Notes: generated from the sequence alone by a model not told the origin. 64,000 nt of DNA from Candidatus Poribacteria bacterium (GCA_028820655.1 JAPPIK010000006.1:183427-247426), one strand, 5' to 3'; counted from the stretch's first letter, positions 261 through 52,950 are shown. Numbers and translations: made by a program.

Positions 261-528
261 CGAGTACAATAGAAAATCCCGCGCAATGTCGGTAGAATGA
301 TGACAGGAAAAGCACCAAACTGTATGTTAGCGATTCCTCCGTCATGCCATAGATTACGCAATGGTTGCGGTATACTAAAGAATGCCCACTACTTTGCTCA
401 AACGCATCTTTTTTGTTGCAAACAATCCCAATCTGATATATAATTTAGCCTGCTGCGATTTGGGTGCATCGTCTTATTGTCCTATCTTGTGAAGTTTTTC
501 ACAACCCTATTGAAATCTAGCTGAGACC

Positions 529-933
529 ATGTTTTTTAACTTCGCAAATGTGCTGATTTTCCTCTTCGTCGGTTCCGTTTTCGTGGCGCTGAACCTCGCC
601 GTGTCTCGCCTGCTTCACACCAAACTTTTTATGGAGGAGAAGTTCATCCCTTATGAGTGCGGCGAAGATCCGATCGGCGATACGCGTATCAAGTTCAACA
701 CTCGCTTCTATGTGATCGCTCTTATTTTTCTGATTTTCGACGTTGAGGTGGTGTTCCTTTTTCCGTGGGCGGTCGTTTTTCGCGGTATCGGTGTGCTTGC
801 GTTTGTCGAAATGTTGATCTTCATCGCCGTGTTGCTGGTCGGACTCGCCTATGTCTGGGCAAAGGGGGATCTTGAATGGATTCGTTCTATCCAGCAGGAG
901 GTGCAAGGGAAGCGTGAGGAGGTTGAAGCCTAG
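529..933 (+). CDS. nuoA: NADH-quinone oxidoreductase subunit A
   Basis: 134 aa, 3 TM helices, conserved PYECG and FDVE motifs. First gene of the nuo cluster. Confidence 0.9.
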   Translation: MFFNFANVLIFLFVGSVFVALNLAVSRLLHTKLFMEEKFIPYECGEDPIGDTRIKFNTRFYVIALIFLIFDVEVVFLFPWAVVFRGIGVLAFVEMLIFIAVLLVGLAYVWAKGDLEWIRSIQQEVQGKREEVEA

Positions 934-956
934 CCGGGAGCGGAGGGTGATTCGTT

Positions 957-1547
957 ATGATTATTGATGAGAAACTTGACGACAACGTTATCGTCACATC
1001 CGTGGACGCCGTCGCAAATTGGGCGCGTGCCTCCTCGCTGTGGCCCATGACCTTCGGACTGGCATGCTGCGCGATTGAGTTTATGGCCACGGCGGCTTCC
1101 AACTATGATCTGGATCGGTTCGGAGCGGGCGTCCCGCGCGCGACCCCGCGTCAATCCGATCTCATGGTGATTTCCGGCACCGTCACCCTGAAGATGGCGA
1201 CGCGTATCAAGAGGCTCTACGAACAGATGCCCGAACCCAAGTACGTTATCTCCATGGGGAGTTGCGCCACCAGCGGCGGTCCATACTGGCAGCACGGTTA
1301 TCACGTGCTCAAAGGAGTCGATCGAATTATCCCGGTTGACGTTTATGTACCCGGTTGCCCGCCCCGTCCCGAAGCCCTGATTGAAGGCTTGCTGAAACTT
1401 CAGGAAAAAATTAAAACACAAACAGTCGCCAAGCGCTCGTACATCCCGTTCCTGCGAAGGCTATACACCAAAACGGATCTCGAAGACCAAGAAATTGACG
1501 CAGTGGTAGAGGAAGGCGCCGAGGAACAGGAAGAAGCCGCTACCTAG
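957..1547 (+). CDS. nuoB: NADH-quinone oxidoreductase subunit B (N2 Fe-S cluster subunit)
   Basis: 196 aa. CCAIEFMA and [10 protein letters not shown] and PGCPPRPE cysteine motifs typical of NuoB. Confidence 0.9.
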
Positions 1548-1567
1548 TGACGGTTTCAACCTTGGTA

Positions 1568-1588
1568 CCGCAAACTGTTGGTTTGCGG
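1568..1588. repeat. Hairpin repeat ccgcaaactgttRgtttgcgg (copy 1 of 3; others at 41626-41646 and 46587-46608)
   Basis: Perfect 8-bp inverted repeat with 5-nt loop. Near-identical copies found in two other intergenic regions. Confidence 0.6.
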
Positions 1589-1677
1589 CCGCATACAATC
1601 CGCTGCAAAGGTGGAAACCTAGGTAACCTGACAAACACCCCCGGTAAAGGGCGAAAGGAGAGCTGCAACGCAATAGG

Positions 1678-2193
1678 TTGATTCCTAGTTCTGGATGCGT
1701 TGTTTTATCTGTGACATCGGAAGAAATTTACACAATACTTAAAGAGGAGTTCGGAGACTCCATTCTCTCCTTTGAGGAGGTCGTCCTAGATTCGTTTATT
1801 CTCATCGCACCAGAGGCAGTCGCCGATATCGCCCGTTATCTAGCCGAAGATGCCGAATTCGCTTTCGATTCGCTAATGTGTTTAGGCGGCGTTGACTTGG
1901 GCGTCAAGGAAGAAAACCTTGAAATCGTCTACCACCTCTTCTCAATGACCCACCGTCACACTGTAGTCCTTAAAGCCATCCTACCCAAGGAAGATCCGCA
2001 TATCCCCTCCGTCGAAGATATCTGGAAGACAGCAAATTGGCACGAGCGGGAGGCGTACGACCTCTACGGAATTACCTTTGAAGGACACAGCGATCTGCGG
2101 CGAATCCTGATGCCGGAGGACTGGGAAGGGCACCCATTGCGGAAAGATTACAAAGATCCCGATTTCTATCGAGGGATGCGAGTGCCGTATTGA
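1678..2193 (+). CDS. nuoC: NADH-quinone oxidoreductase subunit C (30 kDa subunit); exact start uncertain
   Basis: 171 aa. C-terminal HEREAYDLYGITFEGH and PLRKDY motifs characteristic of NuoC. Confidence 0.85.
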   Translation: MIPSSGCVVLSVTSEEIYTILKEEFGDSILSFEEVVLDSFILIAPEAVADIARYLAEDAEFAFDSLMCLGGVDLGVKEENLEIVYHLFSMTHRHTVVLKAILPKEDPHIPSVEDIWKTANWHEREAYDLYGITFEGHSDLRRILMPEDWEGHPLRKDYKDPDFYRGMRVPY

Positions 2194-2745
2194 CGCAACC
2201 AGGCGTAAGGAAAACAGCTATTTGTAAGGTGCAATCAAGTAATTGTAGGGTGTGCACTGCGCACCAGCCTTTTGCTCCGAGGGCGGGACCAAACGAACGA
2301 ACAGTGGGTCCGATAGTGATCCCTCAAGGGAACCGGAACGGTCAAACGTTACGGTAGGAACACAAGCATCCAGAACAATATGGTGCGATGCGGGTGTCGT
2401 ATTGCTGTAGGCAAGCATCGCGAACCTGTCTGAATAAGAGAATAACTCCCGCTATACGGGAAACAATTGCGATATCGGTGCTGGTTCGTCCATGCATAGG
2501 AAGCAATCATAGGCTTATTGGCGGATTGACCGATTTGGAATGACCAGATCCAGATTCTTTACGGCTTTACCATTGAGTTCGTAGTTGAGCGGACCGTCGC
2601 TATCTTCGATGATCAATCAGCGATCATGTCTCTTCTACTGAAGCCGTTGTGTTTTTTCTCAATTCATCGCCGAGTCAAGAATTCTATAGTTTTCAACTGC
2701 CAGAGTTGCCATGACATTATTCCTTGTCTACGAAAGGAGAATATC

Positions 2746-4437
2746 ATGGCACGCAAAGCATCACTAATCACTACATTGCTACCCCTTCTTCTGTGGGGAA
2801 GAACCGCCGTATCCGCGACCCCTACCTCTGAAGAGATCGCCCTGAATGCGCTGGACGGAACAGTCCTTCTGACAATGACGGATGCCGACGGTCGGGCAAT
2901 CGCGTACGGCAGCGGATTCTTTGTTTTGTCCAATGTTGTTGCAACCAACTTTCACGTGATTGAGGGAGCCCGCGGAGGCACCGCCCGCCGCGTGGCTCAG
3001 AATAGATCGTATACCCTCGGGCGGATTCTCAAGAGCGATGAGACACAGGATTTGGCGCTGATCGAGGTATCGGCACCGGATGCCGAACCGCTGCCCATCG
3101 GCGATAGCGATAGCAGGTCGTTACGAATCGGCGCGAAAGTTTATGTCGCGGGCAATCCGCTGGGTTACTGGTGGGGAACCTTCTCCGAAGGTATTGTTAG
3201 CGCCCGCCGTACGTGGGGCAATGGAGCGCAGAGGTTACAGATGACCGCTCCGATTTCGCCCGGAAGCAGCGGCGGTCCGGTTCTTAATGAAAGAGGTGAA
3301 GTTGTAGGTGTTTCCGTTGCATCGAGTTCAGATGAAAGGGCTCAGAATATCAACTTCGCCGTTCCGTCTAACGAACTCAAGAAACTCGTCGCCGAATTGG
3401 ATCCCCCGGCGATGAGCCTCGCTCTCCCTCGACGAGCGAACTGGAATATCGGCGACTCGATTGACGTTGTTCTCAATATCGCGAACGGATCAGACATTGC
3501 GGGATTTCAGGTAACTCTGGGATTTGATGGTTCCGTTCTCAAATATCTTGACGTCTTAAAGGGGGATTACATCATCGAAGGAGATGACTTTGCGCGTGAG
3601 ATCGAGGGCGAGAATCAGGTGACATTGGCGGCAACCGGCTTCCCTCAAGTGATGGATGAAGATGGCGTACTTGCGGTAATAAAGTTTGAAATTACCGCTT
3701 TCAAGCCGTACGGTTGGGTACTGTCCGACCTTATTATGTCGGAGGCAATCCTTGTCGATGCCGATGGAGGGCGATCATATCCACGTGTATCCCATGCGAA
3801 GGTATGGGCGCGTCCACTCGGATTCTTGGAAGACGTGAACGGTGATGGTGATGTAGATATTCTGGATTTACGATCCGTTTTTACCAATTTTGGGGTGCGC
3901 GGGAGGAATCATGCCGATGTCAATGAAGATGGTGTCGTAGATGTCGTTGACTTGGTAAGAGTTGCCTCGGCCATAAACACGCCGCGGGGAACTGCCCCTC
4001 CATTAGCGCAAGAAACTCTTGAGGGACTCACTGCCGCGGACGTGAAACAATGGTTGGCATCAGCCTCGCAGCGAGGTCTGACGGATCCCGCTTCGTTGAG
4101 AGGCATATTCTTTTTGGAGCAACTCCTTAACACACTGCGACCTAAAGAGACAGCGTTGTTGCCCAATTTCCCGAATCCGTTCAATCCGGAGACTTGGATT
4201 CCGTACCACCTCGCTAGTCCCTCCGATGTGAAGATTGCGGTCTACAACACAAACGGAGAAATGGTGCGTCAATGGCACTTGGGACATCAAGAGGCAGGAT
4301 TCTACACCGATAAAAACGACGCTGTATATTGGGACGGACGTAATGGAAGTGGTCAGCTCGTCGCAAGCGGCGTATATTTCTATTCGCTAACTGCCGGCGA
4401 TTTTACGACGACGCGCAAAATGTTAGTCGGAAAGTAA
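2746..4437 (+). CDS. Secreted trypsin-like (S1) serine protease with cohesin-like domain, two dockerin-like repeats and a T9SS C-terminal sorting domain
   Basis: ATG at 2746 preceded by AAGGAGA. Signal peptide MARKASLITTLLPLLLWGRTAVSA. His/Asp/Ser triad context (TNFHV, DLALIEV, GSSGGPV). DVNGDGDVDILDL and DVNEDGVVDVVDL dockerin-like repeats. C-terminal LPNFPNPFNPETWIPYHL...GVYFYSL as in T9SS CTDs. Confidence 0.8.
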   Translation: MARKASLITTLLPLLLWGRTAVSATPTSEEIALNALDGTVLLTMTDADGRAIAYGSGFFVLSNVVATNFHVIEGARGGTARRVAQNRSYTLGRILKSDETQDLALIEVSAPDAEPLPIGDSDSRSLRIGAKVYVAGNPLGYWWGTFSEGIVSARRTWGNGAQRLQMTAPISPGSSGGPVLNERGEVVGVSVASSSDERAQNINFAVPSNELKKLVAELDPPAMSLALPRRANWNIGDSIDVVLNIANGSDIAGFQVTLGFDGSVLKYLDVLKGDYIIEGDDFAREIEGENQVTLAATGFPQVMDEDGVLAVIKFEITAFKPYGWVLSDLIMSEAILVDADGGRSYPRVSHAKVWARPLGFLEDVNGDGDVDILDLRSVFTNFGVRGRNHADVNEDGVVDVVDLVRVASAINTPRGTAPPLAQETLEGLTAADVKQWLASASQRGLTDPASLRGIFFLEQLLNTLRPKETALLPNFPNPFNPETWIPYHLASPSDVKIAVYNTNGEMVRQWHLGHQEAGFYTDKNDAVYWDGRNGSGQLVASGVYFYSLTAGDFTTTRKMLVGK

Positions 4438-4546
4438 CACCATTTCCCTTGAAACCGAGTTTTTTCGTGAAATCTCGGTTTCTTCGCTAAATCCTAGTAG
4501 GCTTCAAGGTAACGGTTTAGAGTTTTGTTGAAAAATACATTATGAA

Positions 4547-4563
4547 GGTGCGCACTGCGCACC
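4547..4563. repeat. ggtgcgcactgcgcacc hairpin (copies also at 2247-2265 and 8395-8412), each preceded by a tgtaggg/tgaagg motif
   Basis: Perfect short inverted repeats located just downstream of the nuoC, protease and nuoI stop codons. REP-like or intra-operon terminator/attenuator elements. Confidence 0.5.
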
Positions 4564-4674
4564 GGCCTCTAAAAGCCCAAGCGGGGATCAAACGAGTGGA
4601 TAGATCAAATGAGCGAATATCGACTGCGATAGAAATTCCCCGCCCACCATTCCTTGTAGCAATTAACTGACGGG

Positions 4675-4920
4675 ATGAAGACAACCGACTCGATTTTCCC
4701 GCTCCAGAGGATCAAGCGACTGAATAAGGAGCGCGATAGTAAATCCTTGAATGTTGATAGAACTCCCAAAGCAAATCCAAATAAAGAATCGGTAGAGGTT
4801 GAGCATCAAACATGGTTAAATCTGTCGATCCAAGGCTTGGAGGAAGCATACGGGGAAGACGAGCCGGAGTATTCTAGCGACTTTATCGAAAAGGTAAACC
4901 CCCACTATTCGGGGAGGTAG
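4675..4920 (+). CDS. Hypothetical small protein (81 aa), low confidence
   Basis: ORF only; no recognisable motifs. Confidence 0.2.
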   Translation: MKTTDSIFPLQRIKRLNKERDSKSLNVDRTPKANPNKESVEVEHQTWLNLSIQGLEEAYGEDEPEYSSDFIEKVNPHYSGR

Positions 4921-5013
4921 TGTCATATTGACTGCTACTATGACGGAGAACCATCGTGGTAGAAACCTTTTCTCATTCGCTCATCACTCATTTGATGCTT
5001 TAGTGAACTCATT

Positions 5014-6198
5014 ATGGCAGCGCCACAACTTGAAAGCAAATTCATAGAATTGCAGCCGTTCTCGGATGAGATGGTCGTGAACATGGGACCTCAGCATCCG
5101 AGCACACACGGCGTGTTGCGCCTGGAGTTGAAACTTGACGGCGAAGTCGTGCGTGAAGCCATCCCGCATCTCGGCTATCTGCACCGCTGCTTTGAGAAAC
5201 ATTCGGAGAATCTGTCGTATCCGCAGATCATTCCGTTTACGGATCGCATGGACTACATCGCCGCCATGAACCAGAACTGGGGATTCTGCCTGGCCGTGGA
5301 GAAGTTGATGGCGGCGGATGAATCGAAGTCCTTTGAAGTCCCGGAACGCGCCGAGTACCTCCGCGTGCTCATCTGTGAACTGAATCGCATCGCCAGTCAT
5401 CTCTTGGCGTTCGGCACCTACGGTATGGACATCGGCGCCTTTACGCCGTTCCTTTACGCCTTCCGGGATCGCGAAAAGATTCTTCTGATGTTCGAGAAAA
5501 TCTGCGGCGCGCGATTAACCTACAACTATGTGCGTATCGGCGGGGTTTCCAGAGATTTGCCGCCTGATTTCCTTGACGAAGTGAAGGAGTTTATTGACTA
5601 CTTCGAGCCAAAGATTGATGAGTATAACAATCTTCTTTCCGGCAACAGCATTTTCATCGAGCGCACAGCCGGCGTCGCGGTGATGGACCAAGAGATGGCG
5701 ATCAACTACGGCGCGACGGGACCGAACCTTCGTGGCGCCGGAATGCAATGGGATCTGCGTAAGGACGAACCGTATTCCATTTATGATCGATTCGACTTTG
5801 ACATCCCCTACGGCAAAGATATGCCCGAAATCGGCGTGGTCAAGGGCGACTGTTGGAACCGATACAAGGTGCGAATGGATGAGTTGAAAGAATCCGTCAA
5901 GATTGTCCGACAGATACTTGAACTTGAGAGCGGCATTCCCGACGGACCGATTGTGGCGGAGTTCAAAGCCGTTCGCCCGCCGAAGGGTGAAATCTTCTTC
6001 CGGAGCGAGGCGCCGCGCGGCGAGTTGGGATTCTACATCGTGAGCGACGGCACGCCGAAACCGCTTCGTCTCAAGGCGCGGTCGCCGTGCTTTAGTGCGT
6101 TGAGCGCATTGTCGGAGTTGAGCAAAGGATTGATGGTCGCCGATATCATTGCCATTATCGGAAGCATCGATATTGTAATGGGCGAGGTTGACCGCTAA
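5014..6198 (+). CDS. nuoD: NADH-quinone oxidoreductase subunit D (49 kDa subunit)
   Basis: 394 aa. NMGPQHPSTHGVLRL N-terminal motif and C-terminal RxxCxSALS...GSIDIVMGEVDR signature. Confidence 0.92.
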   Translation: MAAPQLESKFIELQPFSDEMVVNMGPQHPSTHGVLRLELKLDGEVVREAIPHLGYLHRCFEKHSENLSYPQIIPFTDRMDYIAAMNQNWGFCLAVEKLMAADESKSFEVPERAEYLRVLICELNRIASHLLAFGTYGMDIGAFTPFLYAFRDREKILLMFEKICGARLTYNYVRIGGVSRDLPPDFLDEVKEFIDYFEPKIDEYNNLLSGNSIFIERTAGVAVMDQEMAINYGATGPNLRGAGMQWDLRKDEPYSIYDRFDFDIPYGKDMPEIGVVKGDCWNRYKVRMDELKESVKIVRQILELESGIPDGPIVAEFKAVRPPKGEIFFRSEAPRGELGFYIVSDGTPKPLRLKARSPCFSALSALSELSKGLMVADIIAIIGSIDIVMGEVDR

Positions 6199-6435
6199 AA
6201 TCCGTAGCGATCGAGGGAGTGGATAACGACCGCGACAGAAATCCCTCACACCACATGTAGGAGGGAATCAAGCGACTGGACAAGGAGTGCGATAGAGATC
6301 TTCTTGCCACGATCGGCTAACGTGCAATCAACCGAGTAGTTAGCCACCGCGATAGAGATCCTAAGGCGATAGAAAATCCTGTAATGAGTACCGTAGAATT
6401 TTGCTGACCACTGATCACTAACCACTGTCTTCAAA

Positions 6436-7701
6436 ATGTTTGACCAGATACAACAAATAATTTCAAATTCTCCACGAGTGTCCTCCGAAGCTACCGGAAA
6501 CTGGGCGGAGGAATTTGCCCGGAATCGGTTGATTCCGATTCTGGAACATCTTCCGTTTGTCCCGGCAGGGGTCGCCGAACACTTTCCCGTTTCGCTGGGT
6601 ACGATTCTCGTGATGTTCGGCGCATGCGGCATTTTTGTCGCAATTGTACCGCTCATTCCCCTGGTGCTGGTGCTGGCGGAGCGCAAGGTGTCTGCCCAGA
6701 TTCAGAACCGGACGGGTCCCATGCGCGTAGGTCCCTGGGGAACGCTTCAAACGCTGGCGGACGGGGTCAAGTTAATCTTTAAGGAGGATTTCATCCCTCC
6801 GCAGGGCGACAAACTACTCTTTGTCTTCGCACCATACATCATCTTCGCGTGTTCATTCGCCGCCTTCGCCGCCATCCCGTTTGGCCAAGGAATTTTAATC
6901 AGTGACTTCAACATCGGCATCTTCTATATTATGGCGATATCCTCGGTTGTCGTCATGGGCGTCATTATGGCGGGGTGGTCGTCCAACAGCAAATGGTCGC
7001 TCTTGGGGGCGCTCCGATCCGCCGCACAAATCGTCAGCTACGAAATTCCGTTGGGGCTCTCCATTCTGGTCGTTGTGATGCTGGTTGAGAGCCTGAGGAT
7101 GCAGGATATCGTCGGCAGTCAATCCGAGGGGCTGTTTAGCTGGCTGATATTCCGCACTCCCTTCACGTTTATCGGCTTTTTCGTCTTCTTTATCTCATCG
7201 ATCGCCGAAGTGAATCGGACGCCGTTTGACCTACCGGAGGCGGAATCGGAGATTGTCGCGGGGTTCCACACCGAATACAGCGGAATGCGGTTCGCGCTCT
7301 TCTTCATCGCCGAATATGCGAACATGTTCGCCGTGAGCGCCATCGCGGCAACGTTGTTCCTCGGCGGTTGGGAGGGCATACTTCCGGGATACGACTTCCT
7401 CGGCGGAATGCCGGGCTTCGTCCTTAAGACACTGTTCTTGGTGTTTGTCATGATGTGGTTGCGGTGGACGCTGCCGCGCCTGCGCGTGGATCAGTTGATG
7501 AACCTCTGCTGGAAATATCTCCTGCCCATCGCATTCTTCAACATTCTGGGAGTGGGGATATGGGGATTGATCTTCCCCAAAGATTCCAGGCTAAGCATAA
7601 TCATCAGCATGGCTATCATCGTTGTCGGGATTATCGTCACCTACGCCGTGGCGGGAAAGAGCCTTTCCAAACGCCCCGAGCCTCAGCCGAGTTCAGCTTA
7701 A
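6436..7701 (+). CDS. nuoH: NADH-quinone oxidoreductase subunit H; N-terminal extent uncertain (true start may be internal)
   Basis: ERKVSAQIQNRTGPMRVGPWGTLQTLADGVK and EYSGMRFALFFIAEYANM motifs. About 80 residues precede the ER motif versus about 35 in typical NuoH. Confidence 0.85.
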   Translation: MFDQIQQIISNSPRVSSEATGNWAEEFARNRLIPILEHLPFVPAGVAEHFPVSLGTILVMFGACGIFVAIVPLIPLVLVLAERKVSAQIQNRTGPMRVGPWGTLQTLADGVKLIFKEDFIPPQGDKLLFVFAPYIIFACSFAAFAAIPFGQGILISDFNIGIFYIMAISSVVVMGVIMAGWSSNSKWSLLGALRSAAQIVSYEIPLGLSILVVVMLVESLRMQDIVGSQSEGLFSWLIFRTPFTFIGFFVFFISSIAEVNRTPFDLPEAESEIVAGFHTEYSGMRFALFFIAEYANMFAVSAIAATLFLGGWEGILPGYDFLGGMPGFVLKTLFLVFVMMWLRWTLPRLRVDQLMNLCWKYLLPIAFFNILGVGIWGLIFPKDSRLSIIISMAIIVVGIIVTYAVAGKSLSKRPEPQPSSA

Positions 7702-7720
7702 CATAGGGAGGGATGGTACG

Positions 7721-8383
7721 ATGAACAAGTATTTCTACAATATCTACAAAGCGCTCTACACGGTGCTCATCGGCATGCGGATCACGTTTAAGCAAATGTT
7801 CCAGCACGCGGTAACACATCAGTATCCCTATCAACGTCCGTTTGAGAAGAAGCGAAACGTGCGTGATATTCCCAAGGGTTATCGGGGGCAACTGTTCAAT
7901 AGGATTGAAGACTGCATCGGCTGCAAGAAGTGCGAGATGATTTGTCCCGTCGACTGCATCGCTATCACCACCCAGAAACTTCCCAAGGGGGAACGGCTTT
8001 GGGATAGCATGAACGTGGTTCATCTCAAGGATCGCTCCGAGGTTGTCGGTTTCGTCGAAGGCGACGAGAAGGTGGTCCCGGACACAACGGTCACCGTCAA
8101 AACTCGTGACGACCAATCCCTTGACATCCCGAGCGGCGACATTGCCCGAATCGTCGAACGCAAACCCGTCATCTTCTATCTCGACAAGTTTGACATTGAT
8201 ATGTCGCTCTGTATGTACTGCGGGCTTTGCACCGAAGTTTGCCCGACGGAGTGCCTGATAATGTTTGATGATATGAAAGGCATCGAGTATTCGACGTTCG
8301 ACCGAATGGAATTGGTATTTCCGTTTGCCAAACCTGAGATGTACCAAAATGAGCCTGCTGCCGAGACGGAAGCGACCGAGTAA
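7721..8383 (+). CDS. nuoI: NADH-quinone oxidoreductase subunit I (2x[4Fe-4S]) with an ~50-aa insertion between the two cluster motifs
   Basis: ATG 7721 preceded by AGGGAGGG. CIGCKKCEMICPVDC and CMYCGLCTEVCPTEC ferredoxin motifs. Confidence 0.9.
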   Translation: MNKYFYNIYKALYTVLIGMRITFKQMFQHAVTHQYPYQRPFEKKRNVRDIPKGYRGQLFNRIEDCIGCKKCEMICPVDCIAITTQKLPKGERLWDSMNVVHLKDRSEVVGFVEGDEKVVPDTTVTVKTRDDQSLDIPSGDIARIVERKPVIFYLDKFDIDMSLCMYCGLCTEVCPTECLIMFDDMKGIEYSTFDRMELVFPFAKPEMYQNEPAAETEATE

Positions 8384-8566
8384 CGGCTACTGTAGGGTGC
8401 GCACCGCGCACGAGCGTTTAAAAGCCCTAGAGAGGATCAAGCGACTCAATAAGTAGCGCGATAGAGATGTCTTATTCTTCAATAATCCGGTTTCTCTAAT
8501 CCTCGTTGCATTGTCTTTTAACATGAACCAACTAGCCACTGACCACTAGCCACTAAACACTGCCTT

Positions 8567-9094
8567 ATGGAATTCGCCGGCATTAAATCCCTGATATTTT
8601 ACGCTTTCGCGTTGCTCACCGTTGCCTCCGCGGTCCTCGTGGTAACTGTGCGGAACATCGTCCACGCCGCCTTTTCACTGATGATTACGCTCTTTGGCGT
8701 TGCGGGGCTTTATGTGTTTCTGCAAGCCGACTTCCTCGCCGCAACCCAAGTCATCGTCTACGTCGGCGGCATTCTGGTACTCATCCTTTTCGGTGTCATG
8801 ATGACGAGCGGGCGCCTCCAAATGAGGATTCAGATTGAACGGGGACAACTAATCCTCGGTGGACTGGTCGCGCTGTTGATTCTGCTCCTTCTGTTCGGCG
8901 TGATTTCAAATACGCCCCATTGGGAAGGAATCAAGGACGACGGGTCAACCTTGGAACCGACCACCCGCACCATCGGCGAGATGATTATGCAAGGTGAATT
9001 CCTGCTGCCGTTTGAGGTTGTCTCAATCCTGCTGTTAGTGGCGCTCATCGGCGCAGCGCTGATTTCTCGCAAGGAGGTGCGAGACGAAGAATGA
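8567..9094 (+). CDS. nuoJ: NADH-quinone oxidoreductase subunit J
   Basis: 175 aa, 5 TM helices, position within cluster. Stop overlaps nuoK start (ATGA). Confidence 0.85.
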   Translation: MEFAGIKSLIFYAFALLTVASAVLVVTVRNIVHAAFSLMITLFGVAGLYVFLQADFLAATQVIVYVGGILVLILFGVMMTSGRLQMRIQIERGQLILGGLVALLILLLLFGVISNTPHWEGIKDDGSTLEPTTRTIGEMIMQGEFLLPFEVVSILLLVALIGAALISRKEVRDEE

Positions 9095-9399
9095 CGCTCC
9101 AGCACTATCTCGTTATCAGCGCGATCCTGTTCACGCTCGGCGTATTTGCCGTATTGACCCGCCGGAACGCAATTAGTATCCTGATGGGGATCGAGTTGAT
9201 TCTTAACTCGTGTAACCTGAACTTCGCGGCGTTCTCCCGCTTTATGACGCCTGCCGAGGACATCAACGGGCAAATCATCGCCATCTTCGGGATTGTGCTT
9301 GCCGCCGCGGAAGCGGCAGTGTTTTTGGCTATTATTTTGGCGATTTACAGGGAGTTTGGCACAATCCAACCCGATCAAACGGATACATTGAAGGGATAA
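9091..9399 (+). CDS. nuoK: NADH-quinone oxidoreductase subunit K
   Basis: 102 aa, 3 TM helices. LGIELILNSCNLNFAAFS and AAAEAAVFLAI motifs. Confidence 0.9.
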   Translation: MTLQHYLVISAILFTLGVFAVLTRRNAISILMGIELILNSCNLNFAAFSRFMTPAEDINGQIIAIFGIVLAAAEAAVFLAIILAIYREFGTIQPDQTDTLKG

Positions 9400-9403
9400 T
9401 AAG

Positions 9404-9817
9404 ATGGGCAGGATTTCGGTTGATCTCAAGCTGACAAATAGTCAAGATATGCTCCGTGCGGAAGATGGCATATTGCCTCCTGATCAGATTCGTCAGACAA
9501 CAGCGCGCGGTGTGGTTGACACCGGTGCAACGCGATTGGTAATACCTGCTGCAGTGGCTGAGCAGTTGGGACTGCCTGAGACTGGCGAAGTGGGAGTTCG
9601 TTATGCCGACGGACGGACGGGAACACGCAAGGTTGTCGAAAATGTTCGAGTGGCACTCCTAGACCGTGAATTCACGTTTCGTGCCATCGTTGAGCCGGAC
9701 CGAGACACGGCGCTTATCGGCGCGATTGTTCTTGAAGAACTTGATTTTGTCGTGGATTGCGTCGCCCAGAGGTTATATCCACGAGATCCGAATCGTATCA
9801 TCGCGGAGATTGAGTAA
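9404..9817 (+). CDS. Retropepsin-like (clan AA) aspartic protease, single-domain
   Basis: 137 aa. VVDTGATRLVIP catalytic D-T-G-A motif. Inserted between nuoK and nuoL with 4- and 12-bp gaps. Confidence 0.75.
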   Translation: MGRISVDLKLTNSQDMLRAEDGILPPDQIRQTTARGVVDTGATRLVIPAAVAEQLGLPETGEVGVRYADGRTGTRKVVENVRVALLDREFTFRAIVEPDRDTALIGAIVLEELDFVVDCVAQRLYPRDPNRIIAEIE

Positions 9818-9829
9818 GGAAAGGGTGGT

Positions 9830-12052
9830 ATGGTCGTACCTTTAATCAGCATAATTCTGCTTTGTCCGCTCGCGGCGTTCGCGTTCTTCGGACTGCTGTC
9901 ACTGACCGGTCGAAACTATTCGCGTCAAGACCTCGTCTCGACCGCGGCGATGCTAATCGCAGCAATCTGCTCCTTCCTCCTACTGCCGCAGATTACTTCC
10001 CACCCGGAGCCCATCTCGATTACGTGGATCGAAATCGACCAAATCAAACTGTCGATGGGATTCTATTTTGACAGCGTAACAGCGATGATGCTGCTCGTCG
10101 TCACGATTGTCAGTAGCCTCGTTCATATCTTTTCCATCGGCTACATGCACGGCGACCCCCGCTACCCTCGATTCTTTGCCTTCCTCTCGTTGTTCTCCTT
10201 TTCGATGTTGTTCCTCGTCGTCTCCGACAACCTGTTAGGCATCTATATCGGGTGGGAGCTTGTCGGGTTGTGTTCCTATCTGCTCATCGGGTTCTGGTTC
10301 GAGAAGGACTCCGCCGCAGACGCTTGCAAGAAGGCGTTCCTGACTACTCGTGTGGGCGATGTGGGGATGTTCGTGGGCATGATGATGTTATTCACGAAGT
10401 TCCATACGTTCGCGCTTTACGGCGACGGCGGCATCTTCGCGGCGGTCGCAAATTTGGGATCCGGTGACATCGTTTGGTTGTCCATTGCGGGTGTTCTTAT
10501 CTTCTGCGGGGCTATCGGCAAGTCGGCTCAGGTTCCGCTTCACACCTGGTTGCCCGATGCCATGGAAGGTCCCACACCCGTCAGCGCGCTCATACATGCA
10601 GCCACGATGGTGGCAGCCGGTGTCTACTTGACCGCGCGAATGTTTCCCATCCTGACGCCCGATTCCTCTCTGACGATAGCCTACGTCGGGGGTATCACAG
10701 CTATTGTAGCCGCTACAATCGCCATCGTCAGGTTTGACATCAAGCGGGTGCTCGCCTACTCGACCATCAGTCAACTGGGTTTCATGATGCTGGGTATCGG
10801 TGCCGGGAGCTACGTTGCGGGTCTCTTCCATCTCACCACGCATGCCTTTTTCAAAGCGTTGCTGTTCCTTGGATCGGGCAGCGTCATTCATGCGTTGGCG
10901 GTTCACAACGGCTCGCACGGCGACGACCACGGCCATGAACCGGAGCATCATGACGGCGAACACGGTGAAGCTGAACACCACGACGATACGGGGTTTGACA
11001 GCCACGGCATCCCGGAAGAGCAGGATATGCGCCACATGGGCGGACTACGCCGCAAGATGCCCATCACCTTCCTCACGATGCTGATTGCCACCCTGTCGAT
11101 TTCGGGCGTGCCGTTCGTGTTCTCCGGGTTCTGGAGCAAAGACGCCATCCTGGCGGGCGTTCTGGATCGGGCGATGGCATGGGATTCGGTGCATTACTAC
11201 ATTCTTTTCATAATCGCGCTCGGCGCCGCCGGCATCACCGCCTTCTATATGTTCCGTCTCATCTTCATGACCTTCTTCGGGGAACCGCGCAACAAAGAGA
11301 TGTACGACCACGCGCACGAGTCGCCGGGCGTCATGGCAGTTCCGCTGATCATTCTGGCAGTCCTCAGTTTTCCCATCGTGAACACCTGGTCTTTCAACCC
11401 GTGGTCTTTCAAAAAACATGTGAATGCGCCAATACAACCCCACGTGCACGCTCCCGCGCATGCTAACGAAGAGCGTCCGGTGCTATACGCGATGGCAGGC
11501 GCCTCCGACGCGCACGCTGCCGAAGACGCTGGCCACGGCGCTCATGACGCCGCGCACGCCGAAGACGACCACCATGCTCACCACAGCCCCGCCCACACGA
11601 TTGCAATGGTTCTCTCCATCATTGTTGCCAGTTTCGGCATTTTGCTATCCTATCTATTCTATCATCGCAAAGTATTCTCTGCCGAAGGTGCGGCGTCGCG
11701 TTTGCGTCCGCTTTACAAACTCTGCTGGGGCAAGTATTTCTTCGATGAATTTTATGACGGCGTAATCGTGGCGTTATCCGTCGCTTGGGCAGGGTCTCTC
11801 AGAGTTTTTGACTTGCGCGTGATTGACGGCATCGTGAATCTGGTGGGGTTTGTCACACGAGCGGTGGTCGCCGCGTTCACGGGTTGGTTTGATAACAAAT
11901 TTGTTGATGGGCTGGTAAATTGGGTCGCGCAGATTACGTGGTCGGTCGGTGGGAGGATTCGACGGATTCAAACCGGCGCCATCCAGAATTATCTGCTGAT
12001 CGTTTTGGGCGGTGTCGTGTTGTTGATTCTGATTTTCCGGCGATTTTTATAG
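9830..12052 (+). CDS. nuoL: NADH-quinone oxidoreductase subunit L with two His/Asp/Glu-rich insertions
   Basis: 740 aa. WLPDAMEGPTPVSALIHAATMV antiporter-like motif. Inserts HNGSHGDDHGHEPEHHDGEHGEAEHHDD and HVHAPAHANEE...HGAHDAAHAEDDHHAHHSPAH. Confidence 0.9.
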   Translation: MVVPLISIILLCPLAAFAFFGLLSLTGRNYSRQDLVSTAAMLIAAICSFLLLPQITSHPEPISITWIEIDQIKLSMGFYFDSVTAMMLLVVTIVSSLVHIFSIGYMHGDPRYPRFFAFLSLFSFSMLFLVVSDNLLGIYIGWELVGLCSYLLIGFWFEKDSAADACKKAFLTTRVGDVGMFVGMMMLFTKFHTFALYGDGGIFAAVANLGSGDIVWLSIAGVLIFCGAIGKSAQVPLHTWLPDAMEGPTPVSALIHAATMVAAGVYLTARMFPILTPDSSLTIAYVGGITAIVAATIAIVRFDIKRVLAYSTISQLGFMMLGIGAGSYVAGLFHLTTHAFFKALLFLGSGSVIHALAVHNGSHGDDHGHEPEHHDGEHGEAEHHDDTGFDSHGIPEEQDMRHMGGLRRKMPITFLTMLIATLSISGVPFVFSGFWSKDAILAGVLDRAMAWDSVHYYILFIIALGAAGITAFYMFRLIFMTFFGEPRNKEMYDHAHESPGVMAVPLIILAVLSFPIVNTWSFNPWSFKKHVNAPIQPHVHAPAHANEERPVLYAMAGASDAHAAEDAGHGAHDAAHAEDDHHAHHSPAHTIAMVLSIIVASFGILLSYLFYHRKVFSAEGAASRLRPLYKLCWGKYFFDEFYDGVIVALSVAWAGSLRVFDLRVIDGIVNLVGFVTRAVVAAFTGWFDNKFVDGLVNWVAQITWSVGGRIRRIQTGAIQNYLLIVLGGVVLLILIFRRFL

Positions 12053-12284
12053 TGGGATGTAGGCGGAGGAAGTTCTATAGAGCTTAGGTATTTTGAATTC
12101 TGGCAACCAAAAAACGGATAATTCCGTGCTCGGTCTGGATTGATAAATCCAGACCCGGCGTTGGACTTCACAATCGGACAGAAGGAAAGCATTGTACCGG
12201 TCAGAATTAATTAAGATAAATTTGATTTAACAGGAGCGCCTGTTTCGATTCTTTGTAGTGATGTAATGGGGAGGAATTTATTAG

Positions 12285-13796
12285 ATGCTATTAACGTTAA
12301 TGATTTTTGTTCCGCTGATAGGAATGATTGTTGTGCTATGCCTACCGCGGAACGCAGAGGAAACTATTAAACGCACGACGCTTGTCTTCACGCTTATTCC
12401 GCTCATACTGGGAGTGATGCTGCTTGCGGGATATGACCGGGAGAGCGAAGATCTTCAGTACGAGGTTAACGTAATGTGGATTGACGCGTTCAAAATCCAC
12501 TACCACATCGGAATCGACGGACTGAGCGTGACGCTGATACTCTTGACCGTGCTGCTCGGACCAATATGCGTGATAGCATCGTGGCGGAATATCGAGAAGG
12601 GCATCAAAGCCTATATGGGGTTGTTCCTGTTGCTGGAAACGGGTATGGTCGGTTTCTTCGCAGCGCTCGACCTTTTCCTCTTCTACGTCTTCTTCGAGCT
12701 AACCCTGTTGCCGATGTACTTCCTTATCGGCATCTGGGGCGGTCCTCGACGCGAATATGCAGCCATTAAATTCTTCCTGTACACCCTCTTTGGCAGTGTG
12801 TTGATGCTGATAGCGATGATCGCCGTGTATCTCAAAGGCGGCACATTCGACATTCCGACACTGATTACATTGGCTCAACAGGACGGTCACGCACTCGCCA
12901 ATCCGGTATTCCAGATTTGGGTGTTCCTCGGTTTCTTTATCGGGTTCGCCGTCAAAGTCCCGATTTTCCCCTTCCACACGTGGCTTCCCGACGCGCACGT
13001 AGAAGCGCCGACAGCCATCAGTGTTATTCTTGCGGCTATCCTACTGAAGATGGGAACTTATGGGCTTATTCGAGTTAATTTCGCCATGCTGCCGGAAGGT
13101 ATGGCTTTCTTTACGGACCCGGAAGCTGCAGTGAAGCTGGGGCGATCTGCCACTTGGGGATACGGGCTGGCTATCCTCGGATTTATCAATATTGTCTACG
13201 GATCATTCTGCGCGCTGGCGCAAACCGATTTCAAGAAACTCGTCGCCTACTCCAGTATCGGGCACATGGGGTTCGTCATATTGGGGCTTGCCGCGCGCAA
13301 CGAGAGCGGTGTGACGGGCGCTATTCTGCAGATGTTCAACCACGGCGTGATTAGCGCGATGTTGTTCCTACTCGTCGGTGTGGTCTACGACCGAGCACAT
13401 CACCGCGAAATCAACGGCTTCGGCGGGCTTGGAACCAAGATGCCAATCTACACCGGCATCACCACCTTGGCATTCATGGCATCGCTCGGGCTGCCGGGGC
13501 TTAGCGGATTCGTCGGAGAGGCGCTCGCTCTGCTGGGGGCGTACAGTAAGTATCAGGTGCTGACCATCCTTTCGACAATTGGCATCGTCGTCGGCGCCGC
13601 CTATTTCCTCTGGACGCTGCAGCGCGTGTTTCTCGGAAAGTTGAATCCGAAGTATGAGGGCATCTCCGAAATCAATGGGCGCGAAATCCTGACGCTCGTA
13701 CCGCTCGGTATTCTTACCATTGTTTTTGGAGTTTATCCGTCTCTTCTCATTAACATGTTCAATCAAGCGGTAAGCATGTTGCCGCTCGTGCCGTAA
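12285..13796 (+). CDS. nuoM: NADH-quinone oxidoreductase subunit M
   Basis: 503 aa. FPFHTWLPDAHVEAPT motif, position in cluster, RBS GGGGAGG. Confidence 0.9.
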   Translation: MLLTLMIFVPLIGMIVVLCLPRNAEETIKRTTLVFTLIPLILGVMLLAGYDRESEDLQYEVNVMWIDAFKIHYHIGIDGLSVTLILLTVLLGPICVIASWRNIEKGIKAYMGLFLLLETGMVGFFAALDLFLFYVFFELTLLPMYFLIGIWGGPRREYAAIKFFLYTLFGSVLMLIAMIAVYLKGGTFDIPTLITLAQQDGHALANPVFQIWVFLGFFIGFAVKVPIFPFHTWLPDAHVEAPTAISVILAAILLKMGTYGLIRVNFAMLPEGMAFFTDPEAAVKLGRSATWGYGLAILGFINIVYGSFCALAQTDFKKLVAYSSIGHMGFVILGLAARNESGVTGAILQMFNHGVISAMLFLLVGVVYDRAHHREINGFGGLGTKMPIYTGITTLAFMASLGLPGLSGFVGEALALLGAYSKYQVLTILSTIGIVVGAAYFLWTLQRVFLGKLNPKYEGISEINGREILTLVPLGILTIVFGVYPSLLINMFNQAVSMLPLVP

Positions 13797-13809
13797 CTGG
13801 GAGACTGAC

Positions 13810-15279
13810 GTGACGTCGTTGACAAACATCCAAAGCATTCCCTACTTTATTCCCGAACTGATTCTCGTCGTATTTGCGGTGGGCGCCATCCTGTTGGATT
13901 TGGTGAACAGGGGTAGGAACACCGAGCGGGTCGCTTATCTTGCGCTTGTCGGCGTGGCGGCAACGCTGATTGCGGTCATCGCTGTCGGATCATCGGAAAA
14001 ATCGCTGTTCCTCGGTATGATCCGGCTCGACAGTTTCGCGGTATTTTTCAAAATCATCATCTTGGTCGCCACGGCGGTCACGGTGATCTTCTCCATCAAA
14101 TCCGAAGAGCTTGACCCGCGAATGAAGGGGGAATACTACGCCCTCCTGATTGCCGTGACATTCGGCATGTTCCTCATGGTATCGTCGAAAAATCTGTTGA
14201 TGATTTTCATTTCGCTCGAAACCGTGAGCCTGACCTCCTACATCTTGGCGGGATTCTTGACGCACAACCCGCGCTCGAGTGAAGCGGCGTTCAAGTACAT
14301 CACCTATGGGGCGGTCGCATCGGGAACAATGCTGTTCGGATTTTCACTTCTGTTTGGGTTGACGGGCACCGGGGATGTGGTACAGATTAGCCACCGACTG
14401 ACCGAGATGTTCAGCGCGGGCGAAGCCTATCCGCTCGTCGTATTGGTGATCATCACCTTTATCCTGGCGGGCATCGGCTACAAGATGGCTTCGGTGCCGT
14501 TCCACATGTGGTCGCCCGATGTGTACGAAGGCGCACCTATCCCCATCACCGCGTTCCTGTCGGTGGCGTCGAAAGCCGCCGGGTTCGCGCTGTTCATTCG
14601 ACTGTTCTATTCGACATTCCAGGCTTCCAATATTGTTGGTTCTGTCGATTGGTCGCTTATGCTGTCGATTGTCTCCGCGCTGACGATGACGTTGGGCAAT
14701 CTAGCCGCGCTGCCGCAACAAAACGTCAAGAGGCTGCTTGCGTATTCGAGCATAGCGCACGGCGGCTACCTGCTCATGGGGGCAACCTTGCTGACGCCCG
14801 AGGGAATTCAAGCCATTCTCTTCTACTTCATAACCTACCTGTTCATGAACTTGGGGGCATTCTTTGTGGTGGTGTTGATTGCGAACGAGCTGGGGAGCGA
14901 AACCATTGACGGCTATCGGAATCTCTGGTCCCGCGCGCCGTTCGTTGCGGTGTCAATGGCAATCTTTCTCTTCTCGCTGACGGGCATCCCACCCTTGGCT
15001 GGGTTTTTCGGTAAATGGTGGCTCTTTATGGCGGTCATTAAACAGGAACTCTACTGGCTGGCAGTTGTCGGCTTGCTGAATTCTGTTGTTTCGCTTTACT
15101 ATTATGCGCGAATCGTGAAGGCGATGTTTCTGGAATCATCCGATGAGACGGATGCAATCTCCTTTTCGTGGGGCAATCTTGCGCTGCTGGTTGTGTTCGT
15201 TGTGCCGACGATCATCATCGGTTTCTGGAATACCGTTTATGAGGTGTCGAGGGCTTCGCTGGGGAGGATTGTTGGTTAG
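13810..15279 (+). CDS. nuoN: NADH-quinone oxidoreductase subunit N (GTG start)
   Basis: 489 aa. VPFHMWSPDVYEGAPIPITAF motif. Last gene of the cluster. Confidence 0.88.
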   Translation: MTSLTNIQSIPYFIPELILVVFAVGAILLDLVNRGRNTERVAYLALVGVAATLIAVIAVGSSEKSLFLGMIRLDSFAVFFKIIILVATAVTVIFSIKSEELDPRMKGEYYALLIAVTFGMFLMVSSKNLLMIFISLETVSLTSYILAGFLTHNPRSSEAAFKYITYGAVASGTMLFGFSLLFGLTGTGDVVQISHRLTEMFSAGEAYPLVVLVIITFILAGIGYKMASVPFHMWSPDVYEGAPIPITAFLSVASKAAGFALFIRLFYSTFQASNIVGSVDWSLMLSIVSALTMTLGNLAALPQQNVKRLLAYSSIAHGGYLLMGATLLTPEGIQAILFYFITYLFMNLGAFFVVVLIANELGSETIDGYRNLWSRAPFVAVSMAIFLFSLTGIPPLAGFFGKWWLFMAVIKQELYWLAVVGLLNSVVSLYYYARIVKAMFLESSDETDAISFSWGNLALLVVFVVPTIIIGFWNTVYEVSRASLGRIVG

Positions 15280-15512
15280 AAGCCGGTGGGAGCGAATCTG
15301 TTGCACTTAGTGATAGGGCGTTACCAAGTATATTTGTACGGTGGGATTAAGTGACCGAACAGGGAGTGCGATAGAGTTCCCATAGAAATCTTGATAGCGA
15401 AGGACCAACTGACCTATAGGAGTTCCCACGGAGGAAATCCCATAGATAATCCTACTCGCTCGCTGCTTTGATCGCTCAATCGAACCTACCTGCTAATCTG
15501 TTGATTGCATCG

Positions 15513-37604: not shown

Positions 37605-37634
37605 TTGCAGAACTGTGTTTTAATGTGCTAAAAT
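37605..37634 (+). promoter_or_regulatory. Candidate sigma-70 promoter (TTGCAG - 18 bp - TGcTAAAAT extended -10) for the DUF3179/rSAM operon
   Basis: Sequence match to -35/-10 consensus about 90 bp upstream of the ATG at 37726. Confidence 0.35.
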
Positions 37635-37725
37635 GCTGTGGACATCGGGATGTGTACATTCCGGAGAAGGCTCCGTGTCGCACGCAGTATTGAAATCCGA
37701 AAGGAATGGTACCCGCACCTGTAAA

Positions 37726-38784
37726 ATGGATAAGAATATCACCCTTTTATCGACCACAATCCTGTTGCTGCTGCTCAAATGCCTACCGTGGGCGGGCACA
37801 ACCCGTGCCGCAGAGGCAGGTTATTCGCGAGATGTCATTAAGACACTGCTGCCTTTCGATGCAATTCCCGCGATCACGAACCCGCAGTTTGTGTCAGCGC
37901 ACGAAGCGCAATTGGGCGGCGATGCTCCCGTTATCGGAGTGACTTTCAACGGGGAGCAGCACGTTTACTCGATCTATCTCTTGAACGGGCACGAAATCGT
38001 GAACGATGTTGTCGGCGGAATGAAGATTGCGACCACATGGTGACCGTTGTGCAACTCGGCTATCGTGTATAGCCGCGAGCTTGACGGGAAAACCTACACC
38101 TTCGGCGTTTCCGGCAAACTGTGGCGCGATGCGCTTGTCATGTACGATCATCAGACTCGCACGCTGTGGTCTCACATCACGGGCGAAGCTATCCGGGGAA
38201 AACTCGAAGGGAAGAGGCTAAAGATGCTGGCGGGGATGCCCAAAATCGACTGGCGAACGTGGCGCTTGAATTTCCCGGGGACGAAGGTACTTTCCGTGCC
38301 GGTCGGCGCTTTCGATAACTCCTTCTCGATCGAGGAGCAGAGGCGCGACAGCTACGCGCAATATCACGCCGGTCCGGAAACGGGAGTTAGCGGTATGCAC
38401 TACTCCGATACCCGTCTAAACAACAAAGAACTGGTAGTTGGCGTGAAACACGGAGATCGGCACCGTGCTTACCCGACTTCGGAATTTCAACCGAAGCCGA
38501 TCGTCCATGACGCCATCGACAATGTTCCGATCCTCGTGTTTCACGATCAAAACTCGGGCGCCACCGCCGTGTACAAACGAACGCCAGATGGATTGACGTT
38601 GGTGTTCGAATGGTGCAAAGGTTATTTTGCCGTAGACAGCGCGGGAACAACTTGGAACCTTATCACGGGCCTCGCGACGCAGGGGAAATACAAAGGGACA
38701 CGGCTGGAACGGCTGCCTTCAATCAACCTCTACTGGTTCGCATGGGCGCGTTACTACCCCGATACGTCGATTTATGGTCGATGA
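37726..38784 (+). CDS. DUF3179-family secreted protein with in-frame TGA (38041-38043) at the first Cys of the conserved C-P-L-C motif; predicted selenoprotein (U-P-L-C)
   Basis: ORFs 37633-38043 and 38047-38784 are in the same frame across one TGA. HEIVNDVVGG...TTW-[TGA]-PLCNSAIVY matches the DUF3179 HEIVND...TYCPLC core. Hairpin cggctat-cgtgt-atagccg sits 13 nt downstream of the TGA. Signal peptide from ATG 37726. Confidence 0.65.
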
Positions 38785-52910: not shown

Positions 52911-52950
52911 AGCCCCGTAACTCGGTAGAGTTACGGGGCTTTTTTGTTTT
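52911..52950 (+). terminator. Rho-independent terminator after rpsT
   Basis: agccccgtaac-N8-gttacggggct stem followed by TTTTTGTTTT. Confidence 0.8.

Follow-up and report, generated by a model that had tools for sequence, protein, structure and literature searches.

Respiratory complex I of the 11-subunit form (NuoABCDHIJKLMN), which lacks the NADH dehydrogenase module made of NuoE, NuoF and NuoG (N module), is well known, and its physiological electron donor is an open question (PMC3144371, PMC11238625). Such complex I-like enzymes include those of Desulfitobacterium and Bacteroides as well as cyanobacterial NDH-1, and NuoI is their presumed electron entry point (PMC3144371, PMC11238625). 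Here we analysed a 64-kb stretch of DNA (hereafter the window) from a Candidatus Poribacteria bacterium, in which a nuo cluster spans positions 529 to 15279 with all its genes on the plus strand. This cluster encodes the same 11 core subunits, NuoI included, and shares with the enzymes devoid of N module a nuoD gene followed directly by nuoH, no nuoEFG being present in the cluster. Unlike the known 11-subunit clusters, it is broken by passenger genes, two of which encode proteases, and by repeat-filled spacers, and its NuoI bears a 62-residue insertion, restricted to Poribacteria, between its two clusters. We consider it probable that this 11-subunit-type cluster is a loosened operon, the spacers of which serve as landing sites for passengers and repeats.

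One of the two passengers, a gene coding for a retropepsin-like aspartic protease between nuoK and nuoL, also has described relatives. Like Rickettsia APRc and the Pseudomonas RimB and Rlo proteins, its product is a single-domain protein of some 130 aa that shows a DTG motif, a psi-psi-Gly motif and the retropepsin fold. RimB, like the Poribacteria protein, is a small cytosolic protein encoded within an operon, and exemplifies the small operon-encoded retropepsin-like proteases having specific substrates (PMC11957791). APRc and Rlo are unlike the Poribacteria retropepsin, which has no membrane anchor or signal peptide. The latter further differs from bacterial retropepsin-like proteases in falling below the NCBIfam cut-offs and in belonging to a family without a conserved partner gene outside Poribacteria. 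Our literature searches returned nothing relevant on the composition of complex I in Poribacteria, on cohesin and dockerin domains in Poribacteria or on a retropepsin within a nuo operon.

Composition and origin of the nuo cluster

Genes were identified using Pfam and NCBIfam models. NuoA, B, C, D, H, I, J, K, L, M and N were all recovered (E-values from 1e-29 to 1e-123) in the order nuoA-B-C, serine protease, nuoD, nuoH-I-J-K, retropepsin-like protease, nuoL-M-N. The thirteen genes named in an earlier sequence-only reading of this DNA thus all lie where it had placed them, on one strand, and the domain matches bear out its claim that two unrelated protease genes sit inside the cluster:

529-933, plus strand: nuoA (Oxidored_q4, E 2e-36)
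957-1547, plus strand: nuoB (Oxidored_q6, E 2e-30)
1711-2193, plus strand: nuoC (Complex1_30kDa, E 3e-47), with a GTG start according to the gene call of the source contig
2746-4437, plus strand: passenger gene for a secreted HtrA-like serine protease (Trypsin_2, Cohesin, Dockerin and a type A C-terminal domain of the type IX secretion system, T9SS)
5014-6198, plus strand: nuoD (Complex1_49kDa, E 2e-97)
6436-7701, plus strand: nuoH (NADHdh, E 8e-123)
7721-8383, plus strand: nuoI (Pfam/NCBIfam), with the 62-residue insertion at about 7997-8182 between two 4Fe-4S motifs
8567-9094, plus strand: nuoJ (Oxidored_q3, E 8e-39)
9091-9399, plus strand: nuoK (Oxidored_q2, E 7e-29), overlapping nuoJ by 4 nt
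9404-9817, plus strand: passenger gene for a cytosolic retropepsin-like aspartic protease (Pfam gag-asp_proteas, Asp_protease_2)
9830-12052, plus strand: nuoL (Pfam/NCBIfam), 740 aa
12285-13796, plus strand: nuoM (Proton_antipo_M, E 3e-77)
13810-15279, plus strand: nuoN (Proton_antipo_M, E 2e-73)

The four cysteines of cluster N2 (CC..C..C) are legible in NuoB and both CxxCxxCxxxCP motifs of NuoI are invariant; the Fe-S ligands of the Q module are thus kept. No NuoE, NuoF or NuoG domain was detected within the cluster, nor in the larger open reading frames (ORFs) of the window, and in compact relatives too nuoD is followed by nuoH with no nuoEFG in between. The description of the locus as an 11-subunit-type cluster without nuoEFG therefore holds for the cluster and for the 64 kb around it.

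The retropepsin and Nuo proteins are 94-100% identical to those of a chromosome assembled from a metagenome (metagenome-assembled genome, MAG) of Candidatus Poribacteria (OZ242354.1, 6.49 Mb), and because of the identity of the Nuo proteins the host can be assigned to Candidatus Poribacteria on sequence grounds. A series of further Poribacteria MAGs carries the same cluster. The identical arrangement was seen on four contigs from three samples, i.e., in independent assemblies, and the gene order is therefore not an assembly artefact. For synteny comparisons we used 16 Poribacteria loci retrieved through the retropepsin, to which 32 loci retrieved through NuoK alone were added against the ascertainment bias of the first set. 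The data cover 64 kb of the genome, and relatives were compared as 20-kb pieces.

Fixed junctions, invaded spacers and the history of the insertions

Genes of the nuo cluster are co-oriented in every genome examined. Across loci, some junctions are nearly fixed, namely A|B (about 26 nt), H|I (22-25 nt), J|K (4-nt overlap) and M|N (16 nt). Others are variable: B|C (84-480 nt), C|D (120-4412 nt), D|H (68-651 nt), I|J (37-821 nt), K|L (208-2796 nt) and L|M (38-1455 nt). The serine protease gene occupies a nuo spacer in the window and in loci L005, L011-14, L016, L023 and L072, and a degraded copy remains in L004; in L004, L005 and L016 a gene for a GmrSD type IV restriction enzyme stands beside it (~3300-5650). 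A PIN-domain gene behind a small ORF, resembling VapBC, is found in L008 (2713-3329), while L063 (3009-5894) contains an HNH gene, fragments of GmrSD and DarT genes and a NADAR antitoxin gene, the GmrSD fragment being joined to a second copy of the nuoC 3' end in what looks like an insertion scar. An Eco57I-like fragment lies at A|B in L041 (3392-4360); at K|L, L015 has cupin, Phd/YefM and additional retropepsin genes (5295-6872) and L004 a fragment of an insertion sequence. The variable spacers of L006 and L071 hold no passenger.

The basal Poribacteria-like clusters L076, L077, L079 and L080 show a compact nuoC-D-H-I-J-K-L-M arrangement, with only 23-95 nt at K|L and no retropepsin, and, from a comparison of about 25 related nuo clusters, the ancestral arrangement is best reconstructed as a compact nuoABCDHIJKLMN. 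A first census, which required the retropepsin, had given the impression of a phylum-wide nuoK-retropepsin-nuoL order; retrieval through NuoK brought up six Poribacteria-like loci lacking a retropepsin, and this view was narrowed to a subclade. In a neighbour-joining tree of NuoI, NuoJ and NuoK the retropepsin-bearing loci form a single clade, within which is nested L075, a locus with a clean loss (72-nt gap). The simplest history would consequently be a single gain at nuoK|nuoL in the ancestor of the subclade, followed by several losses. The synteny comparison that had been proposed from the sequence alone thus reveals both protease insertions to be lineage-specific. A special link between proteases and enzyme finds no support, as the junctions host unrelated passengers and the retropepsin was lost repeatedly. 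Judging from these comparisons, the junctions are most readily seen as general landing sites for unrelated passenger genes.

The retropepsin-like gene

The product of 137 aa contains DTGA and LIGA motifs. It displays the catalytic D-T/S-G of clan AA as VVDTGATRLVIP and the hydrophobic-hydrophobic-Gly motif as ALIGAIV. Its AlphaFold2 (AF2) model has a predicted local distance difference test score (pLDDT) of 88.8, and the top Foldseek match is Rickettsia APRc (5c9f), along with the HIV-1, EIAV and XMRV proteases (E from 1e-5 to 2e-4, probability 1.00). The protein is predicted to be a cytosolic aspartic protease, probably homodimeric. The NCBIfam cut-offs of TIGR03698 and TIGR02281 were not reached (41.8 vs 57.35 and 28.3 vs 57.95 bits, respectively). 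A profile search of the PDB gave only weak matches to Ddi1, and marginal matches to NDUFA10 (E 0.2-0.6) were dismissed as noise.

Exactly 4 nt separate nuoK from the retropepsin gene and 12 nt separate the latter from nuoL. In L071 and L072 the gene is deleted except for its last 25 codons. Since the retained 3' stub includes the ribosome-binding region of nuoL, translation initiation of nuoL appears to be built into the terminal part of the retropepsin gene and both genes to be co-expressed. The narrow gaps and the preservation of the stub with the nuoL ribosome-binding site after deletion argue, in line with the earlier suggestion of co-translation, for a packing that looks like co-expression with the nuoK and nuoL genes. 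A hairpin of the repetitive extragenic palindromic (REP) type sits exactly at the deletion scar in both of these loci and in L023, where the active copy of the retropepsin gene was deleted and a dead copy alone remains.

Compared with its orthologues, the retropepsin shows ratios of nonsynonymous to synonymous substitution (dN/dS) of 0.02-0.32, the nuo genes ranging from 0.00 to 0.14. In the lineage of the window it thus reads as a real gene under purifying selection and not as a decaying ORF. Tandem duplication of the gene has given three lineages, two of active types and one in which the catalytic DTG changed to NTR; in P0022, P0033 and P0061 the DTG is replaced by NTG or NTR in an intact ORF. 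The dead paralogue lies at 9446-9856 in both L006 and L014 and at 10001-10408 in L023, and its dN/dS of 0.35-0.46 would indicate that it is still under some constraint. Mosaic segments shared between paralogue types suggest gene conversion. Decay takes the form of frameshifts (L016), stop codons (L063) or clean absence (L075), and at least five independent losses or pseudogenisations were counted.

Outside Poribacteria the family gave 1692 database matches, mainly in Planctomycetota. No nuo gene occurs within 10 kb at any of 47 non-Poribacteria loci, nor did these loci reveal a conserved or recurrent neighbour: their 140 nearest ORFs are mostly metabolic, any family being seen at most 3 times. 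The retropepsin had no PADLOC match. The hypothesis that it belongs to defence islands or toxin-antitoxin (TA) systems was rejected as a general property, given the lack of a PADLOC match and of recurrent or defence-related neighbours. We conclude that the retropepsin is probably a long-lived, dispensable and co-transcribed passenger and not a core subunit.

The serine protease gene and the nuoC|nuoD spacer

The serine protease gene encodes a protein of 563 aa in which a T9SS type A sorting domain at the C-terminus (TIGR04183, 33.4 bits for a cutoff of 23) is combined with an N-terminus, MARKASLITTLLPLLLWGRTAVSA, that by inspection reads as a Sec signal peptide; the protein thereby has both features of T9SS cargo. 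No T9SS machinery was seen in the window. Found in a subclade only, with a dN/dS of about 0.15, and preceded by its own strong AAAGGAG ribosome-binding site, the gene is a recent, subclade-specific passenger of the highly variable nuoC|nuoD spacer. A second protein of the window, encoded at 28659-30065 on the minus strand, ends in a FlgD_ig-type domain (E 1e-5, below the Pfam cutoff), which suggests a sorting tag used by several secreted proteins of this genome. Features between the serine protease gene and nuoD include:

4451-4482, plus strand: stable hairpin directly 3' of the protease stop codon (-15.4 kcal/mol, z -4.5), not called by the terminator scan
4675-4920, plus strand: ORF of 81 aa without Pfam or NCBIfam match, holding a copy of a 35-nt repeat unit at 4711-4740

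The hairpin could be a terminator or an RNA-stability element and could attenuate transcription. The 81-aa ORF, initially included in the gene order, is most likely repeat DNA, as it has no family match, contains a copy of the 35-nt repeat and is missing or merely 47-61% conserved in relatives having nuo genes 90-99% identical.

Transcription signals

A consensus scan of the region and an alignment of relatives both point to the sequence upstream of nuoA:

416-444, plus strand: promoter-like TTGCAA-17-TATAAT upstream of nuoA, the best consensus-scan match in the region (10/12), invariant in 8 relatives
488-503, plus strand: CRP-type palindrome TGTGA-N6-TCACA, located after the promoter and before the start codon of nuoA, invariant in 8 relatives

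The CRP-type palindrome TGTGAAGTTTTTCACA is perfect and is the sole match in 64 kb, where 0.06 would be expected, which suggests putative control of the cluster by a regulator of the Crp/Fnr family. Upstream of the promoter-like element the sequence cannot be aligned among the 8 relatives. The same is true of the spacers upstream of nuoD and nuoH, save for their last 10-35 nt, and in close relatives a conserved promoter-like block is present upstream of nuoA and absent upstream of nuoD and nuoH. This phylogenetic footprint favours, albeit it does not prove, one main promoter with read-through.

Dispersed repeats in the spacers

The GTAG-tagged REP superfamily comprises short GC-rich palindromes behind a GTAG, which are multi-copy and intergenic and fall into several classes (PMC3733652). 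Hairpins and repeats in the nuo spacers of the window were identified as follows:

2245-2265, plus strand: GTAG-tagged REP-like hairpin, GTAGGGTGTGCACTGCGCACC
4546-4566, plus strand: REP-like hairpin with GAAG in place of GTAG (family match)
6210-6356, plus strand: three copies of a 35-nt dispersed unit (ATCAAGCGAsTGrATA..GCGATAGA), found by repeat search, with no stable fold
6404-6427, plus strand: heptamer array RCCACTR, 3.4 copies, abutting the start of nuoH, its proximal part kept in 5 of 7 relatives
8392-8411, plus strand: GTAG-tagged REP-like hairpin (family match)
8436-8465, plus strand: 35-nt dispersed unit (repeat search)
8531-8562, plus strand: heptamer array RCCACTR, about 4 copies, abutting the start of nuoJ (repeat search)
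12131-12160, plus strand: hairpin of a second dispersed family, D17, with 3 copies in the window (-21 kcal/mol, z -4.9)
15346-15375, plus strand: 35-nt dispersed unit downstream of nuoN (repeat search)

GC-rich hairpins had been pointed out after nuoC, the protease gene and nuoI; all three exist, two of them one base off the consensus then quoted. They belong to a family, TGTAGG-GTG[CG]GCA-NN-TGC[CG]CAC, represented by six copies in the window, all between genes, and present in close relatives as well. All classes together, the window contains 10 GTAG-tagged GC-rich palindromes for 1.8 expected. Stems are of 6-7 bp and fold with -10 to -13 kcal/mol. In palindrome, GTAG, copy number, intergenic location and division into classes, these hairpins match the GTAG-tagged REP elements (PMC3733652), and we regard them as REP-like on the strength of that resemblance. 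REP elements are mobilised by RAYT/TnpA-REP proteins; no RAYT gene was seen among the ORFs of the window that were scanned. Unlike REP elements, the Poribacteria hairpins are embedded in composite repeats along with the non-folding 35-nt unit, one to three copies of which usually come after the hairpin. The window has 17 copies of this unit, some of them in tandem arrays at 35.8-36.4 kb. Two other interpretations were discarded: the GC hairpins as intrinsic terminators, for they have no T-tract and none of the three was called by the terminator scan, and the 35-nt unit as a structured RNA, no stable fold being found (z -0.6 and +0.2).

Heptamer arrays do precede nuoH and nuoJ as had been noticed; their unit is RCCACTR, the CCAGTGR originally read there being literally absent from both arrays on either strand. 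CCAGTGR occurs in sister arrays at 54.9-60.1 kb. Seven sites in the window carry such arrays, oriented either way with respect to the neighbouring genes, among them the interval between two ABC-permease genes. Heterocystous cyanobacteria have scattered intergenic arrays of tandem heptanucleotides that are known as short tandemly repeated repetitive (STRR) sequences. The Poribacteria arrays are alike in being intergenic tandem heptamers in either orientation, and differ in unit (RCCACTR here) and in phylum.

Hairpins, 35-nt unit and heptamers are present in close relatives and absent from deeper Poribacteria; a survey of 861 kb from other loci returned 0 copies of the 35-nt unit, with 2 and 6 loose matches for the two remaining patterns. 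Rather than being signals peculiar to the operon, hairpins and heptamers form dispersed families spread over the whole window and restricted to close relatives. From this distribution all three are clade-specific dispersed repeats and not nuo signals.

Repeats are also dense in intergenic regions elsewhere in the window (35700-36650, 52950-53071, 54959-55162, 56536-56583, 57500-58000, 58887-59094 and 59945-60138), where tandem 35-nt units, several classes of GTAGG followed by a palindrome and heptamer arrays are mixed, again in the close clade only; some of these fall between two ABC permease genes of the same orientation (58022-58906 and 59192-59971). Segment 1-244, ahead of the nuoA promoter, harbours a 107-nt direct repeat (1-107 and 138-244, 90% identical) that includes further small hairpins and a GTAG-type element.

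The NuoI insertion and NuoL

Residues 93-154 of NuoI (window positions 7997-8182) constitute a 62-residue insertion relative to every solved NuoI, TYKY or NdhI, located exactly in the short loop between the two cluster-binding motifs. More than 100 NuoI clusters of the Poribacteria type show strong conservation of the insertion, which an exhaustive search across 1.84 billion representative proteins found essentially nowhere else. Five beta strands are predicted for it (pLDDT 71-83) within an otherwise poor model (overall pLDDT 44.5). A distant match to a Gram-positive LPXTG repeat protein was rejected as a low-complexity repeat coincidence. NuoL, of 740 aa, has cyanobacterial NdhF1 (6hum_F) as its closest solved chain and contains two moderate insertions, at residues ~358-391 and ~535-595, ahead of the lateral helix region.

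NuoI being the entry subunit, the insertion may bear on the question of electron input. It is conceivable, if rather improbable, that the 11-subunit enzyme of one Poribacteria clade acquired functional lineage-specific parts, namely the NuoI insert, the retropepsin or both. The beta-rich domain of NuoI could then be a possible docking site for an electron donor, and the co-translated retropepsin together with its catalytically dead paralogue could act on a membrane subunit by processing or regulating it. The cluster would in that case give a concrete way into the question of how electrons are fed into a complex I without N module.

A proposed loosened operon and its alternatives

We propose that, in this lineage, a compact operon would have loosened into the tight blocks A-B, C, D, H-I, J-K, L and M-N, and that the fast-evolving spacers between them may act as permissive landing sites for clade-specific repeats and unrelated passengers. 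The serine protease would be a recent arrival at nuoC|nuoD and the retropepsin an older one that entered nuoK|nuoL a single time, in the common ancestor of a Poribacteria subclade. Its spacing of 4 and 12 nt would lead to expression of the retropepsin along with nuoK and nuoL, yet the gene would be dispensable for the enzyme. Transcription most likely begins at a single conserved nuoA promoter with a CRP-type operator and would read through the spacers. The comparisons above establish the identities of the genes, the history of synteny, the selection acting on the genes, the distribution of the repeats and the conservation of the promoter; co-transcription, read-through and the lack of a protease role in complex I are what we infer from them. 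Several points weigh on the other side. Promoters could hide in the repeats or in the unconserved spacers, and the sigma-70 consensus may not apply to this phylum, while the stable hairpin 3' of the serine protease gene could terminate part of the transcripts. The retropepsin has kept its position, its spacing and its purifying selection while NuoL is only 72% identical, a persistence longer than expected for a purely neutral hitch-hiker, and the retention of an active-site-dead paralogue at a dN/dS of 0.35-0.46 hints at some function. Finally, the trees are neighbour-joining trees of short proteins.

In one alternative, the cluster would be split into independent units, nuoABC, protease, nuoD, nuoHI, nuoJK-retropepsin-L and nuoMN, having promoters in the spacers and hairpins as terminators or processing sites. 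This is the less likely arrangement. It is favoured by the long spacers (130-576 nt in the window), the stable hairpins 3' of nuoC, the protease gene, nuoI and nuoL, the serine protease's own strong AAAGGAG ribosome-binding site and promoter-like matches at about twice the shuffled expectation in the region; moreover, the breaks between the homologous genes of Cyanobacteria fall at these boundaries too. Yet close relatives have no conserved promoter-like block upstream of nuoD or nuoH, unlike nuoA, the hairpins lack T-tracts and are members of dispersed REP-like families, and the genes remain co-oriented in every genome examined.

The two other alternatives concern the retropepsin, which might be a dedicated complex I accessory factor, i.e., a maturation, quality-control or turnover protease for a membrane subunit, e.g., NuoL or NuoK. 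By analogy, it would parallel the endopeptidases of hydrogenase operons or RimB in the rimABK operon, RimB-like operon-encoded proteases with specific substrates being known (PMC11957791). The gene's position and 4-nt/12-nt spacing kept in many genomes, its purifying selection, and its occurrence as the sole family copy found per sampled Poribacteria genome, always at nuoK|nuoL, all speak for such a role. We nonetheless judge it unlikely: the retropepsin was lost or pseudogenised at least five times independently with nuo genes intact, basal relatives with the same NuoI and NuoL features never had it, its nonsynonymous change typically exceeds that of the adjacent nuo genes several-fold and there are signs that paralogues replaced one another, and its Planctomycetota homologues are never nuo-linked. 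More doubtful still is a selfish or addictive element in which an active, potentially toxic protease would be countered by a dead tandem paralogue acting as dominant-negative antidote. This would account for the persistence of the retropepsin inside an essential operon and would suit the tandem pairs of active and DTG-to-NTR copies (L006, L014 and the P0005/P0022 contig), the gathering of TA and defence genes in the same spacers and the patchy, multi-copy, highly conserved distribution of the family across phyla. It fits poorly, however, with an active copy standing alone in most genomes, including the window, with the lack of a PADLOC match, with 47 non-Poribacteria copies showing neither a conserved partner nor TA or defence enrichment around them, and with lineages being viable after loss events.

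Other features of the window

A DUF3179 gene (37633-38784) is split by an in-frame TGA at 38041-38043, which aligns with the first Cys of a W-C-P-L-C motif invariant in full-length homologues; most DUF3179 homologues in databases are called truncated at this same point. Both the TGA and the hairpin downstream of it, GGCUAUCGUGUAUAGCC, are kept in a 61%-identical relative (L107, 1156-2229). The UxxC selenoprotein families on record already include DUF3179 (PMC9312934), and the gene of the window likely encodes a selenoprotein of this UxxC type. A 33-nt tandem repeat (37024-37188; 3.3-4 copies, 90% matches) lies inside an ORF of 145 aa (36879-37316, minus strand) that has no Pfam match. Over the whole window, no Rfam match was obtained at gathering thresholds and no tRNA was found.

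Implications

No sign of a new type of respiratory system was seen; the locus is rather a case of operon erosion. It provides a natural history of an essential respiratory operon tolerating insertions at fixed module boundaries. The sequence of events would comprise one ancient gain of the retropepsin, after which the gene would have been duplicated, inactivated in one paralogue, subjected to gene conversion and repeatedly eroded, while defence and TA genes as well as REP-like repeats came and went in the same nuo gaps. For annotation based on guilt by association the case calls for caution, as tight packing within an operon need not mean membership. It also offers a starting point for the study of a widespread, uncharacterised family of small bacterial retropepsins and of the Poribacteria-specific NuoI insertion.

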